Assembly: GCA_964516765.1 (NCBI GenBank) | Contig: CAZEWZ010000001.1 | Coordinates: 72,755-136,754, forward strand | Direction of reading: 5' to 3' | Source of the DNA: an uncultured Cryomorphaceae bacterium | GTDB taxonomy: Bacteria > Bacteroidota > Bacteroidia > Flavobacteriales > UBA7430 | DNA length: 64,000 bases | In this document: in pieces, positions 38,344 to 45,991 of the stretch | Layout of the letters: each line of letters opens with the position of its first letter | Numbering within the stretch: the first letter of the stretch is position 1 | Made by a program: the position numbers and the translations under genes | Notes under the pieces: generated by a model | The model's database searches: none | The model's input: the letters and a program-made list of their open reading frames with translations, nothing else | Told to the model about the DNA's origin: nothing

Positions 38344-39822
38344 TCACAAATTTTTCAAGTATTTATCCGCATTGAGTAGGTGCTGAGATTTTTTTTCGGG
38401 ACTCATTTTTTCGAAAGTATTAATCAGCATAGATAGTCTTGGATTTTTTCTCATCAAATTTCTATGTTTGTCCATAAATCTCCAGAAAAGACCGTCCCAA
38501 ATTTCAGCCCACTCTCCTTTTTTATAATCACTCATTTTAACTATGTAATTAGACCCACTAATATATGGCTTGGAGGCAAAATAGCCTCCATCAGCGAATT
38601 GACTCATGCCATAAACATTGGGAACCATTACCCAATCATAAGCATCTATAAAGAGCTCCATAAACCAACGATATACCTCGTCTGGGTCAAATTCACAAAG
38701 GAGCATGAAATTCCCAATAATCATTAATCTTTCTATGTGATGGCAATAGGCATGCTTTATTACTTTTTTTATCGAATCGTCAAGCGGGACAATACCTGTG
38801 GTTCCATCATAAAAGCTCGAAGGTATTTTTTTCTTGAATTCAAAGCTGTTTTTGGTTCGCGAAGCAATTCCCTTGACTTCATACATTCCACGTATAAATT
38901 CTCTCCAACCAACAATTTGTCTGAGAAATCCTTCTATTGAATTGAGGGGTACCTTATTCTTTCGACCAAAAGATAACGCTTCAGTTATGAGTTCTTTTGG
39001 TTGGATTAATCCCACATTTAATAGTGGAGAAAGAATACTGTGGTTTAGCCAAACTTCATCGCTAACAATTGCATCTTCATAAGGACCAAATTCATTAAAT
39101 CGCTTTAGAAGAAATTCTTCAATCCAATGATGAACTTGATTTCTTTCAAAGGGATAAGAAGGCTTTTCGGGAAGCTTTCCAGGGTTCTTTGGGAAATGAG
39201 TTTGGACATAGTCTATTGCTGATATCCAAATCTCATTACTCTGAAGCTGTGGTGTTGGGGGGGGGGTTTTTGTTTTGGGATACTTTCTTCTATTATCTGC
39301 ATCATAGGTCCATTTTCCTCCTTCGGGTTGGTCATTTTCATCGATAAGTAACCGATGTTTTATTCTTTGGAGTTTGTAGAATGAAGTTTGAAAAAATTTC
39401 TTTTTTTGGATTTTGAAAAAAGATTTTAGATCTTCTCTATCATTAATAAATAAGGGGTTTTCATATTCCTTAACGGGTATCTTGTATTTTTCTATGGCCT
39501 TATTTATCCTTCTTTCTAGCCAGCAATCTGTGGGATTGATATAATGTAAGGTGAAAGGCCTCTCTTTTTGACTTTCACAGAGAAAGACACGAATATCAGA
39601 ACGTTTTTCGGTACTAGAGATATACTCCAAATCAATCTTTCTAGATTGAAGATCTAGAAAATAAGCCTTCATACTCGCTCGATGAAATGCTAGCTTTTGT
39701 TTATGAAAATTAAATTCTTTAAAGAAAAGGAATTCTTCGATTAAGAACAGTTGGTCACATTTTTCATGTATTTCATGATTTAAAAATAATTGATGTGGAA
39801 ATAATATTCCTATATGTTTCAT
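38344..39822 (-). CDS. Cryptochrome/photolyase family protein, 'photolyase-related' (COG3046, PhrB/CryB-like) subclass
   Basis: 492 aa. The N-terminus [13 protein letters not shown] is typical of this subclass. Also present are LSP.LN.G, GWREF.RG, HHIERLM..GNF and FADGG..ASKPY.SGSNY...MSDY. The start ATG overlaps the DUF2256 stop (ATGA). Confidence 0.85.
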
Positions 39823-40031
39823 AAGTCATTTATGCTTAGTTTGTTTCTCCGACACCGTTCACTGCAATAACGAACATCTTTCCAATTTTTTTCCCATTTT
39901 TTTCTCCAATTAAAGGGTCTTAAGCAAATTTTACAAATTTTTTGTGGCAAATTTGATTTTGAATATTTCTTGTCTTTAATCAAACTGTAATTGTTTTTTT
40001 CCGTGTTTCCAAAACTTAAAAAAAGACCCAA
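39819..40031 (-). CDS. DUF2256 zinc-ribbon protein
   Basis: The C-terminal part reads [32 protein letters not shown]. The ATG at 40031 would overlap the upstream ORF by 56 nt. An in-frame TTG at 39981-39983 gives a 54-aa product and overlaps it by only 8 nt, so it may be the real start. Confidence 0.7.
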
Positions 40032-41073
40032 TTTCTTCTGGGGCTTCGAAAAGCCATTCTCGTGCTTCTTCTGTGCCGCTGTATTTGTGATTGAACGGAT
40101 GTTCTTTGTAGATAATTTCCGAAGAGTTACAATGTGCTTTTAGTTCAGAAAATTCTCCCACAAATACCTTTATGTTTGGGATATTATTTTTTAGTAACAT
40201 CATAAAGTCGATGCAGTTTTTGTTGATCGGATACTCAGAGAATATACTCGGTTCCAAGAGTAAGATTCGATTTGTATCTTCCTTTTTATGCCAATAGGGG
40301 TCTAGATTATAATAATTGTATATGAGAGTTTTTTTCTCGGGGTCTATTTCTGGGAGTTCTGACTTTGGTAATGGAGATTTTAAAATAAATGCCTGACTTT
40401 CTAAGAGTATTTTGGGGATAGTCAAATTTGGAAATTCTTCGTAAGGTATATCAATAAAAGTGTCCTGTTGTTGGGTGAAAAAGAAGGTGTTTATATTGTC
40501 TTGGTTAGCATAGTATTTTTTGCTAGAATTTGAGCCTGCAACCCATTGCCAGCTCAAAGCGTTCGAACCCCAGTCTCCATCTAAAAGTTGGCTATACATC
40601 CATTTTGCAGGAATGAGCCAATGAGAATGTGCTACATTACAAGCTATCGAGCTGACATACATACGCATATGGTTGTGTAGGTATCCATGATCTTTAAGAG
40701 CTACTATTTCTTGGTCTACTGCAATAATCCCTGTTTTTCCATCTACGATACTCTTTGGGATTAAATAGTTCGCGATCGGAGCTTGCGTTTGTTTAATGAA
40801 ATGGTTAATAGCTTCTTTTTTACTGCACCAAATACGTTGCCAGAAATCTCTCCAAGTGAGTTCTTGCACTAATTTCTCGATTTGACTAAAAGGTAATCCT
40901 GAGCTAGATATTTCTTTAAATACTCCTTGTGTAGAAAGAACACCTCTTGATATATATGGCCCCAGATAGGTGAGCTGTCCATCTTTATAATTTCGGGTTG
41001 AGGCATATTTTCTGGGATCAATTTCTTTAACTTTACGTTCAATTTCATAAAGAGAGGTGGGGAATACAGTCAT
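39976..41073 (-). CDS. Photolyase-like flavoprotein with inverted domain order (FAD-binding domain N-terminal)
   Basis: 365 aa. Residues 1-215 carry photolyase FAD-domain motifs (Y...RN......[47 protein letters not shown]). No preceding alpha/beta domain is present. A roughly 150-aa alpha/beta-like extension follows instead. Confidence 0.75.
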
Positions 41074-41116: not shown

Positions 41117-42613
41117 TTATTTATGTTTTTTATTTCTAGGTTTTTTGGGACGAACATGAACCCCCAAGAGTCTAAGAGACTCTTTCTTTACTTCGGGATC
41201 TTTTTTTAATGCCCATAATTTATCTCTGTTTGGAAGCTTTCTTTTTTCAGGGTTAACTATGGGGGCAGGATAGTTAAGTTTAATTTGTCCTCCCAGTAAA
41301 TCGATTGGAGTAAGCATCCATGGTTGGTGGATAAAAGCCAGGGGCAAATCTCTTAGTTCGGGAACCCAACTGAGAACAAAGATACCATCGGAATCTTTTT
41401 CTAGAGATTGCTTGACCGGGTTGTATATCCTGATTGCATTTATTCCAGTGACACCTGCCTGCATTTGAAATTGTGTATAGTGGATGCCTGGTTCGTAGTC
41501 CAAAAATAATTTTGCCATGTGATAAACTCCTCTTCTCCAGTCTTGGTCGAGATAATGACATAAAAAAGAAACCAGCATAGCCCGCATCCGAAAGTTTAGC
41601 CAACCTTTGTGATGCAAACATCGCATACTCGCATCAACCAATGGAAATCCCGTTTCTCCAGCCTTCCATTTTTCAAGGAATACATTATTATTTTCATAAG
41701 ACATTTTTTCATATCCTTTGTTGATACAATAGGATTCATAAGTACAGTCTACTTCAAACTTTTGGATAAAGTGAGATCTCCATTTTAGTCGGGATAAAAA
41801 AGAATCATAGGCTCGTTTTTGACTCTGATAATTTGGGGCGGAACGAACAGATTGATAAGCCATTCTGACGCTGAGATTTCCCCAAGCAAAATATGGGGAA
41901 AGTCTTCCGCATGATATACTACTTTTTTGAGGGCTAGAAATTTGTCTGGAATAGTTTTTGGCTCTTTTATTAATAAAAGATTTGAGATATCTCATAGCAT
42001 AACTTTCACCAGCAGGTTGAAATTGAGGGGGATATTTAAGTAGGAAAGGGAAGTTTTTGAGATTAAAATCAAAAGGAGATTTTATAGATTTATGGGTGCT
42101 TATACTGAATTTATTTTTGAATATTTCTTGATTTGTATAAAGGTACCATCTCTTGTCCCAACCCACTCTATTATTGATTCCTCGAATAATTCCTTCGGTT
42201 TGGAACTCCTTCCATTTCACACCTTTTTTTTTGAATAATGAAGAAATATTTTTATCCCGATTCCAAGTGATTTTAGTTCCACTTTCTTGATGTGAAAATA
42301 CATTTTTTAGTTTGTATTGTGAGATTAAAAATTCAAAGACTTCTTTTGCCTCTCCGTGAAATATTTGAATATCTCTATTCATCGGCTCCAGAAACTTATT
42401 CATGTCTAGGAGCGAATGATAAACAAACTGAAGATGTCTTTTACTTACATCTTTATGGATGATAAGTGAGGGTTCAAACAGGTAAACAATCAGATAGTCC
42501 TCTTCCTGACTTTCTGCCTGAAATAAGGCTTCATGGTCTGAAGTTCTTAGGTCCCTTTTTAGCCAAACAAGATTCATTTGATTCAATAGAATTTTTTTTA
42601 CAAAAATACGCAA
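41117..42613 (-). CDS. Cryptochrome/deoxyribodipyrimidine photolyase family protein (canonical topology)
   Basis: 498 aa. The N-terminal alpha/beta domain reads LVWLKRDLRTSDHEAL. The FAD domain has LSPYFAWGNLS, GW.NFRMRAM..SF and LDYEPGIHY.QFQMQAG. The real start is probably the internal Met at 42577 (MNLVWLKRDLR). Confidence 0.88.
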   Translation of the reverse strand: MRIFVKKILLNQMNLVWLKRDLRTSDHEALFQAESQEEDYLIVYLFEPSLIIHKDVSKRHLQFVYHSLLDMNKFLEPMNRDIQIFHGEAKEVFEFLISQYKLKNVFSHQESGTKITWNRDKNISSLFKKKGVKWKEFQTEGIIRGINNRVGWDKRWYLYTNQEIFKNKFSISTHKSIKSPFDFNLKNFPFLLKYPPQFQPAGESYAMRYLKSFINKRAKNYSRQISSPQKSSISCGRLSPYFAWGNLSVRMAYQSVRSAPNYQSQKRAYDSFLSRLKWRSHFIQKFEVDCTYESYCINKGYEKMSYENNNVFLEKWKAGETGFPLVDASMRCLHHKGWLNFRMRAMLVSFLCHYLDQDWRRGVYHMAKLFLDYEPGIHYTQFQMQAGVTGINAIRIYNPVKQSLEKDSDGIFVLSWVPELRDLPLAFIHQPWMLTPIDLLGGQIKLNYPAPIVNPEKRKLPNRDKLWALKKDPEVKKESLRLLGVHVRPKKPRNKKHK

Positions 42614-42645: not shown

Positions 42646-43026
42646 TTAATTACAACAAAGTTGACATGTTCCCTGAATCAAGACATGTGAGTGGCTTATT
42701 TTTCGATGAGGTATTTTAGGGATATGTATTTCAAAGGGTAGGCAGTCCATTTTCCCACAAATCAAACATTGAAAGTGTGGATGAACATCTATGTGTTCTG
42801 TATCAGAGCAACCAATGCATTTTGCATACCATCTGATTCCATTTTTACTCAGAAAAGAGTGTAAAACCCCATCGTCTTCTAGTTTTTCTAAAACACGGTA
42901 AATGGTAGTCTTGTTTAATTTGTTGCTTAAACGTTTGACCAATTCAATAGCGGATATCCCACCATCTTCTTTAATAAACTCACTCAACAATATTTCGACC
43001 GATTTGGTCATTCTGATAATCCCCAT
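42646..43026 (-). CDS. Fur-family transcriptional repressor
   Basis: 126 aa. Has a winged-helix N-terminus (TTIYRVLEKLEDDGVLH) and C-terminal metal-site CxxC pairs (CIGC, CLIC, CQLCC). Confidence 0.85.
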   Translation of the reverse strand: MGIIRMTKSVEILLSEFIKEDGGISAIELVKRLSNKLNKTTIYRVLEKLEDDGVLHSFLSKNGIRWYAKCIGCSDTEHIDVHPHFQCLICGKMDCLPFEIHIPKIPHRKISHSHVLIQGTCQLCCN

Positions 43027-43104: not shown

Positions 43105-43509
43105 TTGATGAAATTAACATTACTTAAATCTGATGCCCTAGGTATTTTTGCAAGTACATTGTGTATGATACACTGTTTGGCTACGCCATTTTTGTTTATT
43201 GTGCAATCTTGTAGTTCTAGTTGCTGTGAATCAGCCCCATACTGGTGGAAGGCATTTGATTTTGGATTCTTAGTGTTTTCATTTTTTGCGGTTATTAGAT
43301 CTGTAAAAACCTCTTCCAATAAATTAGTCAAAAACCTATTATGGATTTTGATGATTACACTTTTTTTGATCATATTAAATGAAAAAAATACAATTATTGT
43401 TTTACCAGAATTTATGAAATATATAGTCGCCTCTAGTTTAATTTTTGTGCACTTATACAATTCTAATTATTGTCAATGTAAAAATAAAGGCTTTTGTTTA
43501 AATAATTAA
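43105..43509 (+). CDS. MerC domain-containing membrane protein
   Basis: 134 aa with 4 TM helices. The first helix carries ASTLCMIHCLATP (C..HC). The likely true start is the ATG at 43108. Confidence 0.72.
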   Translation: MMKLTLLKSDALGIFASTLCMIHCLATPFLFIVQSCSSSCCESAPYWWKAFDFGFLVFSFFAVIRSVKTSSNKLVKNLLWILMITLFLIILNEKNTIIVLPEFMKYIVASSLIFVHLYNSNYCQCKNKGFCLNN

Positions 43510-43795: not shown

Positions 43796-45991
43796 ATGAA
43801 AAAACTCATTTTCATTTTTTTTATACCTCTATTCATTAATGCTCAATCTTTCAGAGTAATTGATAAAGAGTCCAAAGAGGTTATTCCTTATGCATCTGTT
43901 GAAGTTCATGAGATGCAGATTCAATCTATGTGTGACGAAAATGGAGCTTGTGATATCAAGATTATTTCTAGGAACAGTCCAATACTTGTTTCTGCAGAAG
44001 GATATGAATCAAAGAGTTTTATTTACAAACCCAAAGAGTCAAACATTCATTTAATTGAGCTCGAAAAGGCTCATATTATATTGAATGAAGTAATCATTTC
44101 TCCGACCACAGGAATCATTCAACAGCATAACTTATCCAATGTGTTTTTGAAGTCTATTTCTTCGCCTAATCAATTAATAACCTCTAATCTAATGGGAATT
44201 ATTTCAAGTGTTCCTGGAGTGTATTCGATTCAAACAGGAGCGGGAATTAGCAAACCTGTCATTCGGGGAATGTCGGGGTTAAAAGTAGTGACTTTTTTAA
44301 ATGGTCTTCGTATCGAAAATCAGCAATGGGCAAATGATCATGGAATTAATTTTAGTGGTTTGGGAATAAAGGCTGTTGAGGTTGTAAAAGGTCCTTCTTC
44401 ATTGCTATACGGTGCTGATGCATTGGGTGGTGTTTTGTATTTTGTCGACGAAGATTACGTGAGTCCCAACACTGTCCAAAGTTCTTTTGAAACTCAGTTT
44501 GAGAGTAATTCGCTTTCTACCAGAAATATAGCCAATCTAAAAATAGCTTCAGAAAAGTTTAGGTTGAATGTCCATGCGGGATTTCAAAACGCTGCAGATT
44601 ATCAAATTCCTAACGGGACTTTCGTCGTAAATTCTAGGTTTAAGGGTAAAAGTATTAAGACTTCTTTGGGTTACAATAAAGACAGTTGGATGGTTAATCT
44701 TAGATACAATCACAATTCTAATCAAATAGGTCTACCTGGTCATACACATTCAGCCAACCCTAACCCTTATGACTTTCAGTCAAGCGTTCAAAATAGATAT
44801 AGAGTGGTTCCTTTTCAGCTCATTTCAGACCACTATTTGTCTCTAGAAAATAAGATATTTTTTGGTAATTCGGTATTAAAATTACTTACAGGATTTACTT
44901 CAAACAGTCTCACAGAACACGAAGAAAAGGTGACTATTCCGGGCATCAAAATGCTTCTAACAAATTTCCCGTATCATCTTTCATATACCACTCATTTTAA
45001 TGAGGATATAACGTGGATTTCAGGAGCACAGGGGATGTGGACCAAAAATATTAATGATGATTCAGCTCTAAACATCTTGATTCCTAATTCTACTTCTAAT
45101 GATTATGGTGCCTATTCTCTTCTTCAGTATTCTAAAAGTCAATTTGAAACCCAAATAGGATTCAGATATGATTACCGAGAAATCAATTCAAATCAATTTA
45201 TTTCGAAAATTTTTTCTAAACTAAATGGATCTTTTGGTCTTGTGTATCAAAAGAATTCTTTCACCTTAAGATCTAATTTTAGTTCTGGATTTCGTCCTCC
45301 CCACTTGAGCGAAATGCTTGCCGATGGTGTCCATCACGGAACCAACAGATATGAAATTGGTTCCCAAGATTTGGTCAGCGAATTTGCTAATCAATATGAT
45401 GTGTCATTAGATTATAAATCTGAACATGTTAACTTTAATATGAATCCTTTTTATAATAGTTTTAAAAACTATATTTTCGTTGAGCCCACAGCCGATTTCA
45501 TTGATGGCTATCCAGTCTATGTCTATTCTCAGGCACCTTCAGCTAAGACATACGGGGGGGAAGTATATTTTCATTACCATCCTCATTTTGTTCATAGAAT
45601 TCACATAGAAAGTGATTTTTCATATGTAATTGGACAAGACAATAACAATAACCCTTTACCTCTAATTCCTCAAACCAGAATGAATACGAATATAAAATAT
45701 GAATTTGGTGAACAAAAAAATAAGCTTAAAATCCAGACACTAATTTTTCAAAGAACTGAGTATTTAGACAAAGATGATGTGTCTTCTTTCGAATCAAGAT
45801 CTTCCCATTACCAGATTTACAATGTGGAAGCAAACTTTTTGTATCAAGCGAAACAATTGACGCGCATTAAGTTAGGTGTGAGGAATTTGTTTAATACTAG
45901 ATATATCAATCATTTATCAAATTTAAAAGGGATTGGCTTGCCAAGCCCTGGGATTAATTTTTATTTTTCAATCAATTATTTAATTAACTAA
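43796..45991 (+). CDS. TonB-dependent receptor
   Basis: 731 aa. Signal peptide, a CarboxypepD_reg-like N-terminal domain, a plug (GMSGLKV...NG.R...Q...DHG) and a C-terminal barrel ending in an aromatic residue region. Confidence 0.9.
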   Translation: MKKLIFIFFIPLFINAQSFRVIDKESKEVIPYASVEVHEMQIQSMCDENGACDIKIISRNSPILVSAEGYESKSFIYKPKESNIHLIELEKAHIILNEVIISPTTGIIQQHNLSNVFLKSISSPNQLITSNLMGIISSVPGVYSIQTGAGISKPVIRGMSGLKVVTFLNGLRIENQQWANDHGINFSGLGIKAVEVVKGPSSLLYGADALGGVLYFVDEDYVSPNTVQSSFETQFESNSLSTRNIANLKIASEKFRLNVHAGFQNAADYQIPNGTFVVNSRFKGKSIKTSLGYNKDSWMVNLRYNHNSNQIGLPGHTHSANPNPYDFQSSVQNRYRVVPFQLISDHYLSLENKIFFGNSVLKLLTGFTSNSLTEHEEKVTIPGIKMLLTNFPYHLSYTTHFNEDITWISGAQGMWTKNINDDSALNILIPNSTSNDYGAYSLLQYSKSQFETQIGFRYDYREINSNQFISKIFSKLNGSFGLVYQKNSFTLRSNFSSGFRPPHLSEMLADGVHHGTNRYEIGSQDLVSEFANQYDVSLDYKSEHVNFNMNPFYNSFKNYIFVEPTADFIDGYPVYVYSQAPSAKTYGGEVYFHYHPHFVHRIHIESDFSYVIGQDNNNNPLPLIPQTRMNTNIKYEFGEQKNKLKIQTLIFQRTEYLDKDDVSSFESRSSHYQIYNVEANFLYQAKQLTRIKLGVRNLFNTRYINHLSNLKGIGLPSPGINFYFSINYLIN

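Follow-up and report, generated by a model that had tools for sequence, protein, structure and literature searches.

A probable NewPHL/SPL-class short photolyase of the Bacteroidetes subgroup "Ba" in an uncultured Cryomorphaceae bacterium

An intact gene of a known class

We identified, on the minus strand of a 64,000-nucleotide stretch of DNA from an uncultured Cryomorphaceae bacterium (hereafter the window), a gene whose 365-aa product very probably belongs to the NewPHL/SPL class of short photolyases, more precisely to its Bacteroidetes subgroup "Ba". The assignment relies on sequence comparison and passes through published residue numbers and betaproteobacterial relatives. From the observed architecture, residues, class membership, and gene linkage, we infer that the protein is most likely an antenna-less, FAD-dependent photolyase of cyclobutane pyrimidine dimers (CPD) acting on single-stranded DNA (ssDNA).

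39976..41073, minus strand: NewPHL/SPL-type short photolyase gene, complete (365 aa plus stop codon, ATG start; from the ORF listing)

NewPHL proteins have an N-terminal catalytic domain followed by a C-terminal domain of ~150 aa, bind FAD only, and repair CPD in ssDNA only (Emmerich 2020, PMC7736829). SPL are the same class and include a Bacteroidetes subgroup "Ba" that lacks the four Fe-S cysteines (Xu 2021, PMC8476157). The initial annotation had delimited the ORF exactly, and its reference to a class reported in 2020 under the name NewPHL, with repair of ssDNA, was accurate; the ORF has the defining features of this class in the catalytic domain. Its description of the class as poorly sampled holds for biochemistry but not for sequences, since we found 5408 homologous proteins in the database (E<=1e-3) and the class is common in Bacteroidota. 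The best 120 of these 5408 cover 93-100% of the query with 53-88% identity and are 352-403 aa long, nearly all of them 360-375 aa, a match that lies far beyond chance. Among the matches listed, the nearest relatives are from Flavobacteriales, Cyclobacteriaceae, and other Bacteroidota.

The Pfam family FAD_binding_7 matches residues 69-189 of the protein (E 1.4e-19, 70.8 bits for a cut-off of 27), but only over the first ~127 of the 203 model positions, the last ~75 being unmatched, and the same scan revealed neither PF00875 (DNA_photolyase, the alpha/beta domain of the N-terminus) nor PF04244. Such a partial match and the absence of the N-terminal domain are what one would expect of a classical photolyase degraded by truncation, frameshift, or gene fission and left with a meaningless C-terminal sequence. 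The probability of this scenario is practically nil, and the alignments already refute it. Thousands of sequences have the 360-375-aa architecture, as do at least 590 stretches from the genomes of GTDB species, and the start codon is in register with those of the homologues in a 47-sequence family alignment (A1). This alignment has 80 invariant positions distributed across both domains; the conservation of the C-terminal domain is as strong as that of the catalytic one, with about 22 invariant positions in the last 120 residues, for which a confident fold is predicted. Moreover, the upstream gene of the cryptochrome/photolyase family (CPF) is itself complete, ends 43 nt away, and encodes a protein with only 25% identity. 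The truncated or frameshifted photolyase that the initial annotation had set against its own reading can thus be discarded, and these comparisons point to an intact gene under constraint. We also discarded a recent duplication of a neighboring CPF gene, as the identity is just 23-25%.

A complete CPD photolyase active site

The domain organization of the protein is as follows:

40414..41073, minus strand: catalytic FAD-binding and lesion-binding domain, all-alpha, residues 1-220 (alignments to 1dnp and 4u63, Foldseek, conservation)
40342..40413, minus strand: linker in extended form, wrapped between both domains, residues 221-244 (DSSP of the model)
39979..40341, minus strand: C-terminal alpha/beta "Z-domain", residues ~245-365 (AlphaFold2, conservation, hhalign)

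The inverted order, with the FAD domain first and the alpha/beta domain last, had been proposed from the ORF alone and is found concordantly by Pfam, AlphaFold2, and Foldseek. The full-length AlphaFold2 model (pLDDT 94.9, pTM 0.92) is all-alpha over residues 1-220 and alpha/beta over residues 245-365. With Foldseek, ~200-220 residues align to the FAD domains of photolyases and cryptochromes, the top matches being class I/III CPD photolyases. The FAD-domain motifs, initially placed in the first approximately 215 residues, are all present within residues 1-220 (at 27-47, 74-79 with the motif WRDFWQ, 130-142, and 165-181).

The key residues of this domain (E71, W74, N134, R137, M138, W152, D165, S170, N171, S174, W175, and W177) are invariant or nearly so across the 47-sequence alignment. 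In the phmmer alignment to the photolyase of E. coli (1dnp), the CPD-binding set is complete (E274=E71, W277=W74, N341=N134, M345=M138, W384=W177), and these five positions are invariant in 47/47 family members. The initial annotation had called for a check of the residues that contact FAD and of the Trp electron-transfer chain. Among the former, R344, D372, and N378 have identical equivalents (R137, D165, and N171), while A377 and G381 are replaced by S170 and S174, two small, polar, and family-conserved serines. FADH- gains stability from a polar residue at site 377, and serine at this site is frequent in CPD and DASH enzymes and typical of DASH proteins (PMC9356274). The Trp chain keeps W382 (W175) and W359 (W152), and the distal Trp (W306) corresponds to an alignment gap. 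Within the FAD-phosphate motif TYLSPYISRG, the protein has a glycine in place of Ser38, which over 90% of the family carry.

The link with the published proteins is made by spacing. From the asparagine to the first tryptophan (+18), from there to the next (+23), and within the final W-x-W, the distances are those of DsNewPHL (N151, W169, W192, W194; PMC7736829) and RfSPL (N171, W189, W212, W214; PMC8476157). A search of the retrieved homologues with residue-number fingerprints of DsNewPHL, MmNewPHL, RfSPL, and CmSPL gave no match. Counting from N134 and W177, the positions equivalent to C155, C239, C242, and C248 of RfSPL are V118, Q202, T205, and Y211. We could therefore reject the Fe-S-containing SPL (subgroups C/Ac), as none of the four is a cysteine; the sole invariant cysteine of the family alignment is C145.

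The C-terminal Z-domain

The linker (221-244) has no regular helices or strands according to DSSP, still has a pLDDT of 95-98, and includes conserved positions (L223, L235, and P236). It is followed in the model by five strands (249-253, 268-273, 301-305, 320-323, and 334-336) and four helices (275-280, 285-297, 308-315, and 351-361). The hydrophobic stretches TLIYNYY (249-255), ILLLEP (270-275), IKVFVGEF (301-308), and EIIYKEHP (320-327) correspond to predicted strands, with helices between them. The domain was also modeled alone, with a pLDDT of 88.7, and both models argue against the unordered C-terminal extension that would have spoken against the initial annotation. Its "Rossmann-type alpha/beta domain" is thus retained as regards the ordered alpha/beta fold and the coincidence of the strands; the Foldseek and hhalign searches do not establish that it is of Rossmann type or a displaced antenna domain.

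The Z-domain of the class is described as having about 150 aa, a conserved Trp, and a GFF motif (PMC7736829, PMC8476157). We found a conserved SFFxFW motif at residues 350-355 (F351, F352, and W355), preceded in the family by glycine or proline, i.e., (G/P)SFF. A comparison by hhalign of the Bacteroidota family with proteobacterial-type proteins with an N-terminal FAD domain (from Burkholderiales) gave a full-length match with E 1.4e-75. When the Z-domain was compared alone with the C-terminal region of the same proteins, the two were collinear, with E 2.7e-5 and a moderate probability of 74%, and SFFxFW lined up with their SFSxyW. The names in the proteobacterial-type set are those of Piscinibacter and Burkholderiaceae, and a second homology search likewise yielded betaproteobacterial names alone.

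HMM searches of the Z-domain sequence against Pfam and the PDB gave no match. Foldseek found no PDB structure at E<0.1 and no photolyase among its top 50 matches, the best TM-scores (0.40-0.47) being weak HUP-type Rossmann-like matches to PPAT, cytidylyltransferase, and USP folds. The hhalign comparison with the antenna domain of the neighboring CPF protein has a collinear strand-helix-strand register and a score of 21.3 (P 0.012), which was reached by 6 of 150 column shuffles and is not significant after this control; the companion comparisons, with the N-terminal domain of DPRP and with the C-terminal FAD domain of the neighbor, have P values of 0.036-0.044. Homology of the Z-domain to the classical antenna domain is thus not demonstrated by these profile comparisons.

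A recurrent gene neighborhood

The gene stands in a compact cluster on the minus strand, with the following neighbors:

38344..39822, minus strand: gene for a bacterial (6-4) photolyase of the FeS-BCP/CryPro type, 492 aa, the last in the cluster (Pfam DPRP, E 1.9e-51)
39819..39983, minus strand: DUF2256 mini-gene, 54 codons, TTG start, four-Cys zinc-ribbon-like (Pfam DUF2256, E 1.2e-20)
41117..42613, minus strand: classical two-domain CPF gene, DASH-like/NewCRY-like, 498 aa (Pfam DNA_photolyase and FAD_binding_7)
42646..43026, minus strand: gene for a regulator of the Fur family, 126 aa, located 32 nt upstream of the CPF cluster (Pfam FUR, E 4.5e-6)

The DUF2256 gene overlaps both its neighbors: the NewPHL gene at the stop codon, with its own start, and the FeS-BCP gene at the ATG, with its own TGA. 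The 492-aa protein matches PhrB (4dja), CryB (3zxs), and the (6-4) photolyase of V. cholerae (7ykn) with E values of ~1e-72 to 1e-78. The 498-aa protein, whose gene precedes the NewPHL gene with 43 nt between them, scores under every NCBIfam class cut-off. Relative to 1dnp and 1np7 it has E274->R, N341->F, M345->A, N378->H, W382->F, and W384->M, and by these alignments it lacks the residues for CPD repair. The Fur-family gene is possibly the first of the transcription unit. A scan for sigma-70 promoters and terminators gave counts at or below the shuffle expectation, with a sigma-70 model that does not cover Bacteroidota promoters. The scan of the window for Rfam families and tRNA identified one tRNA-Met only, and nothing near the locus.

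As the initial annotation pointed out, two other CPF classes co-occur with the gene; the arrangement is real and also common. We examined 80 Bacteroidota-type loci among the at least 590 GTDB stretches: in 52, a further CPF gene lies no more than 6 kb from the orthologue, 53 have DUF2256 downstream of the orthologue, and 44 show linkage to FeS-BCP. The NewPHL-DUF2256-FeS-BCP module is seen in most of the 80. The order in the window is Fur, DASH-like, SPL, DUF2256, and FeS-BCP, and the commoner order elsewhere is SPL, DASH-like, DUF2256, and FeS-BCP. The layout with Fur upstream is also found in two loci with 75% identity (L001 and L002) and in almost no other of the compared loci.

Two further readings, to which we jointly attribute a low probability, involve the Z-domain and this module. 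In the first, the Bacteroidota Z-domain would have arisen from the classical antenna domain as a degenerate domain of HUP/Rossmann type, and NewPHL/SPL would descend from two-domain photolyases by circular permutation rather than be relics of a one-domain ancestor. In the second, this subgroup would form a working unit with the DUF2256 zinc-ribbon and FeS-BCP proteins, with a substrate range different from the ssDNA-only CPD repair of alphaproteobacterial NewPHL.

Predicted function

We propose that the Z-domain stands in for the N-terminal antenna domain of classical photolyases and packs on the catalytic domain, over the flavin. FAD would be held by a salt bridge between R137 and D165, with N171 at the flavin N5 and S170 and S174 over the si face, and a flipped CPD would be accommodated in a pocket formed by E71, W74, N134, M138, and W177. 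In the light, FAD would be photoreduced to FADH- by way of a chain of two Trp, W175 and then W152. The excited FADH- would give an electron to the CPD, the dimer would split, and the electron would return to the flavin, with no antenna chromophore involved. By analogy with characterized members, the substrate would be CPD in ssDNA. The gene appears translationally coupled to those of DUF2256 and the (6-4) FeS-BCP, and together with the repair-site-deficient DASH-like gene they may constitute a light-dependent DNA-repair gene cluster.

The characterized reference members are from subgroup A (D. shibae and M. mesophilicum) and subgroup Ac (R. fascians), and we found no biochemically characterized Bacteroidota ("Ba") member in the literature searched. 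For substrate and strand specificity we thus extrapolate from subgroups A and Ac, and it is in this sense that we infer FAD binding and specificity for CPD and ssDNA. RfSPL repairs CPD on oligo(dT) and makes a small contribution to photoreactivation in vivo (PMC8476157), which makes the physiological role of the class less certain.

The authors of the SPL study raised the possibility of a photoreceptor, pointing to the C-terminal extensions and to RfSPL's weak repair phenotype in vivo (PMC8476157). Here, the protein would be a photoreceptor or regulator of the bacterial cryptochrome type instead of a repair enzyme, with the Z-domain as a signaling extension. Such a role would fit the location of the gene, which has a repair-site-deficient CPF gene next to it and a gene for a Fur-family regulator upstream. 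We consider it quite improbable. The residues that bind and split CPD are complete and family-invariant, whereas they are lost in the neighboring 498-aa protein, and the presence of N171 at the flavin N5 and of a polar residue at site 377 favors a stable FADH-, the repair-competent state (PMC9356274). Furthermore, three members of the class repair CPD in vitro, and the C-terminal domain is modeled as a compact, conserved fold rather than a disordered tail.

If the protein is a CPD photolyase, it could also repair duplex DNA and be the main such enzyme of the organism. We found, within the 64-kb window, no CPD photolyase of class I/III or of class II, which leaves room for a broader repair role, and the other CPF genes of the cluster encode a (6-4) enzyme and a repair-site-deficient protein. 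The Z-domain of subgroup "Ba" is also considerably different from that of subgroup A. However, the two NewPHL that were assayed leave CPD in duplex DNA unrepaired, and the phosphate-binding loop in the inter-domain linker, which supports lesion flipping, is absent from the class (PMC7736829); the visible stretch is also just 64 kb of the genome. This broader activity is unlikely, and repair restricted to ssDNA remains our preferred reading.

Implications

The value of these results is mostly one of annotation, in that "FAD-binding domain-containing protein" and "deoxyribodipyrimidine photolyase" should be replaced by NewPHL/SPL (subgroup Ba) short CPD photolyase. Since the class is known and widespread in Bacteroidota, the finding is correct but ordinary, and the pairing of SPL with FeS-BCP is already published, as an operon in Cyclobacterium marinum (PMC8476157). 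The recurrent, coupled NewPHL-DUF2256-FeS-BCP module provides a testable handle on the function of DUF2256. We found no solved NewPHL/SPL structure in the PDB (to April 2026). Given the very confident structure predictions for the family, an orthologue from marine Flavobacteriales could be a good structural target, and its structure could settle the fold of the Z-domain and whether NewPHL are ancestral or permuted.

Comparison with known systems

The protein resembles DsNewPHL (Dinoroseobacter shibae, A8LJA9) and MmNewPHL (Methylobacterium mesophilicum, M7YZC8) in its bacterial origin, its N-terminal all-alpha FAD domain without antenna domain, its ordered C-terminal domain of ~120-150 aa, its Trp dyad instead of a triad, and its partnership with a (6-4) FeS-BCP photolyase rather than with a canonical DASH protein. 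It shares with DsNewPHL a full CPD active site, with equivalents of E81, W84, N151, and W194. It differs in being about 40 aa shorter (365 vs 405), and its Z-domain is only distantly similar to the proteobacterial type, with SFFxFW where GFF was reported. The catalytic domain is only ~35-40% identical to those of the proteobacterial-type relatives, a set that comprises neither the D. shibae nor the M. mesophilicum protein. At the published SSN edge threshold (E<1e-70), the Bacteroidota group might not link directly to their cluster.

The similarities with SPL of subgroup "Ba", such as CmSPL of C. marinum, include the origin in Bacteroidota, the lack of the four-Cys Fe-S motif, the conservation of the substrate and FAD sites of the E. 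coli photolyase, the presence of the equivalents of W359 and W382, and the loss of W306. As for CmSPL, the gene is predicted to share an operon with FeS-BCP. The protein is 55-56% identical to orthologues from Algoriphagus, which represent here the family of C. marinum (Cyclobacteriaceae) in place of CmSPL itself. In contrast with the commoner order in the compared loci, the DASH-like gene precedes SPL in the window and a Fur gene lies upstream.

The class I/III CPD photolyases (1dnp, 1tez/1owl of S. elongatus, and 4u63 of A. tumefaciens) have the same CPD-binding and FAD-contact residues and are the best matches of the catalytic domain (E 5.6e-11 to 1e-8, 22-24% identity over ~205-220 residues). 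Unlike them, the protein has no N-terminal alpha/beta antenna domain, no long inter-domain linker, and no distal Trp, and has instead an unrelated-looking alpha/beta domain after the FAD domain. Finally, it shares with Cry-DASH (1np7 of Synechocystis and Cry3 of A. thaliana, 2ijg) the presumed niche of CPD repair in ssDNA and the serine at site 377, but in DASH proteins the domains stand in the classical order and an MTHF antenna is present, and the window protein is not a member of that class.

Gene integrity and genomic context

The short photolyase-like ORF is found at the position proposed in the initial annotation, with an ATG start and a product of 365 aa. It is one of five genes on the same strand, which also encode two other members of the cryptochrome/photolyase family (CPF).

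Genes of the cluster
42646..43026, minus strand, Fur-family gene; first in order, 32-nt gap to the CPF gene
41117..42613, minus strand, two-domain CPF gene (498 aa); 43-nt gap to the NewPHL gene
39976..41073, minus strand, NewPHL gene (ATG start, 365 aa)
39819..39983, minus strand, DUF2256 gene (54 codons)
38344..39822, minus strand, FeS-BCP (6-4) photolyase gene (492 aa); last in order

The motifs of the FAD domain picked out in the initial annotation lie at residues 27-47, 74-79, 130-142 and 165-181. The sole Pfam match in the protein is FAD_binding_7 (residues 69-189, profile positions 2-127 of 203, E 1.4e-19), and Pfam detected no N-terminal photolyase domain. The NCBIfam models for class I, 8-HDF, DASH and plant cryptochromes match it through their C-terminal halves only, far under their cut-offs.

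A truncated or frameshifted classical photolyase, or the product of a gene fission, would be an alternative reading of this ORF. Among 5.8 billion proteins searched, 5408 matched; the best 120 of these share the architecture, cover 93-100% of the query at 53-88% identity and are nearly all 360-375 aa long. The 80 invariant positions in an alignment of 47 family sequences are spread over both halves of the protein; those in the C-terminal half include Y252, Y255, N256, D258, P259, R269, E274, P282, F290, E324, H325, P326, G333, R338, S350, F351 and W355. The N-terminus lines up with those of the homologues, and the upstream gene, which ends 43 nt away, encodes a complete two-domain CPF protein with an identity of only 25%. 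Together, these results exclude truncation, frameshift and fission. They also show a class that is abundant in sequence space, so that its description as poorly sampled does not hold for sequences.

What looks like a 153-nt gap between the genes for NewPHL and FeS-BCP holds the previously unlisted DUF2256 gene (Pfam E 1.2e-20). This gene overlaps its neighbours at both ends, at its start with the NewPHL stop codon and at its TGA with the FeS-BCP ATG (ATGA), and its product has four cysteines (CxxC...CxxxC). The 498-aa CPF protein carries E274R, N341F, M345A, N378H, W382F and W384M (E. coli numbering). It has thus lost the proximal Trp, the flavin-N5 Asn and the residues that bind the CPD, and it reaches no NCBIfam class cut-off. 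Given the residues at these sites, it is neither class I nor true DASH; its sequence fits the description of the "NewCRY" group of Emmerich et al., or "DASH-like" group of Xu et al. The window has no CPF genes beyond those of the cluster. The Fur-family gene is divergent from genes for a MerC-family protein (43105..43509, plus strand) and a TonB-dependent receptor (43796..45991, plus strand).

The same five-gene arrangement occurs in two 75%-identical marine metagenome contigs (L001, L002). Across the 80 GTDB species loci among the matches listed, a FeS-BCP gene lies within 6 kb in 44, a DASH-like gene is present in 26, and both are in 18. DUF2256 follows the orthologue in 53 of the 80, and is immediately upstream of FeS-BCP in 40 of the 44 loci with the latter. 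More often than the order seen here, the genes run NewPHL, DASH-like, DUF2256, FeS-BCP. Co-occurrence with two other CPF classes is thus real, yet typical, with one or more further CPF genes in 52 of the 80 loci. The linkage to Fur is restricted to the closest relatives, L001 and L002, and is missing in 79/80 loci.

Orthologues 49-54% identical were also found in six MAGs labelled Verrucomicrobiales, Latescibacterota, Rhodobacteraceae, Pseudobdellovibrionaceae, Gammaproteobacteria and Marinicellaceae (L014, L022, L047, L058, L061 and L070). Except at L014, the genes alongside are also of Bacteroidota type (DASH-like and/or FeS-BCP). The explanation is either mis-binning of these contigs or horizontal transfer of the cluster. 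In Algoriphagus (L003/L007, A. winogradskyi, and related loci), the orthologue is not beside other CPF genes; its neighbours are DUF2805, a flavin reductase-like gene and DUF2256, a setting that points to another conserved neighbourhood.

Predicted structure and the C-terminal domain

An AlphaFold2 model built on the family alignment (pLDDT 94.9, pTM 0.92) has an all-alpha region (residues 1-220), an ordered linker (221-244) and an alpha/beta domain (245-365), the Z-domain. The latter has strands at residues 249-253, 268-273, 301-305, 320-323 and 334-336, and helices at 275-280, 285-297, 308-315 and 351-361. The alternating hydrophobic stretches initially read as an alpha/beta domain coincide with the predicted strands. 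In Foldseek searches of the PDB, around 200-220 residues align to photolyase/cryptochrome FAD domains, with class I/III CPD photolyases as best matches. No PDB entry matched over the full length; hence, we found no solved structure of the NewPHL/SPL class in the PDB copy searched.

Modelled separately, residues 222-365 (pLDDT 88.7) gave no PDB match at E<0.1, and photolyases were absent from the top 50. The nearest structures (TM 0.40-0.47), of HUP-type Rossmann-like fold, are phosphopantetheine adenylyltransferases, a cytidylyltransferase and universal stress proteins. An hhalign comparison of the Z-domain with the antenna domain of the neighbouring CPF protein is collinear (strand-helix-strand-helix-strand), with a score of only 21.3 (P 0.012) that was reached by 6 of 150 column shuffles; comparisons with the N-terminal domain of DPRP and the C-terminal FAD domain of the same neighbour gave P 0.036-0.044. 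Searched by sequence against Pfam and the PDB, the Z-domain gave no matches. Given this score and these empty searches, the proposed inverted domain order describes the protein correctly, in that the catalytic domain precedes the alpha/beta domain, and is unproven as an evolutionary statement.

Within the family, searching 1.84 billion cluster representatives exhaustively with HMMER revealed a continuum from full-length proteins of ~365 aa to proteins of 400-445 aa matching only over their N-terminal ~200 residues, the few named ones being from Burkholderiales. A profile of 22 of the longer proteins aligned over its full length with the Bacteroidota profile (E 1.4e-75). The Z-domain profile alone gave a collinear match to the correct C-terminal region (probability 74%, E 2.7e-5), pairing YPvS..CiDF with PWS..RWxFV and SFFxFW with SFSxyW. 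Judging from these 400-445-aa relatives, homology of the Z-domain across subgroups is likely but not proven.

Active site and proposed mechanism

We used phmmer to align the protein with E. coli photolyase (1dnp) and read the residue equivalences from the result. All the active-site equivalents listed are invariant or nearly so in the 47-sequence alignment.

Equivalent residues (E. coli photolyase, 365-aa protein)
E274, E71
W277, W74
N341, N134
R344, R137
M345, M138
W359, W152
D372, D165
A377, S170
N378, N171
G381, S174
W382, W175
W384, W177
W306 (distal Trp), gap

DASH proteins typically carry a Ser at site 377, which stabilises FADH- (PMC9356274). In the FAD-phosphate motif (TYLSPYISRG), more than 90% of the family have a Ser where this protein and its 75%-identical homologue P0002 have Gly38. 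W82 and W158 are invariant in the family alignment and aligned to Trp in the proteobacterial-type group; the counterpart of W158 is invariant in that group, and E. coli photolyase has a Tyr at this position. Speculatively, they could be alternative third electron-transfer residues.

We observe directly the architecture, the conserved residues, the relationships within the family and the coupling of the genes; the proposed mechanism follows class I photolyase chemistry and the NewPHL/SPL papers. FAD would sit in the catalytic domain with the Z-domain as a shield, and be photoreduced through W175 and W152. An electron would then pass from FADH-* to a CPD held by E71, W74, N134, M138 and W177. 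The substrate would be single-stranded or locally unwound DNA, and an antenna chromophore is expected to be absent.

Comparison with known short photolyases

Emmerich et al. 2020 (PMC7736829) described NewPHL as bacterial proteins, down to ~300 aa, lacking the N-terminal antenna domain, with a complete CPD active site, a Trp dyad and FAD as the only chromophore. Their ordered C-terminal Z-domain (~150 aa) packs on the flavin pyrimidine edge, according to covariation; they repair CPD in ssDNA, not in duplex DNA, and their distribution and that of DASH are near-exclusive. Xu et al. 2021 (PMC8476157) independently named the class SPL and defined five subgroups, including the Bacteroidetes subgroup "Ba", which lacks the four cysteines and is represented by Cyclobacterium marinum.

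Set against the published descriptions and residue numbers of characterised members, our protein has the NewPHL/SPL features recognisable in sequence, namely the N-terminal FAD domain, CPD residues and Trp dyad, and an ordered C-terminal domain that is likely the Z-domain of the class. The initial identification was essentially right. We consider it very probably a member of the class and, by analogy, fairly likely to function as an ssDNA-CPD photolyase. Its N-to-W (+18), W-to-W (+23) and W-x-W spacings equal those of DsNewPHL of Dinoroseobacter shibae (N151, W169, W192, W194) and RfSPL of Rhodococcus fascians (N171, W189, W212, W214). Unlike RfSPL, it has V118, Q202, T205 and Y211 in place of the four Fe-S cysteines, so no Fe-S cluster is expected. 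It is 55-56% identical to orthologues of Algoriphagus and other Cyclobacteriaceae, and the SPL and FeS-BCP genes of C. marinum were predicted to form one operon (PMC8476157). Both the class and this type of gene cluster have already been described.
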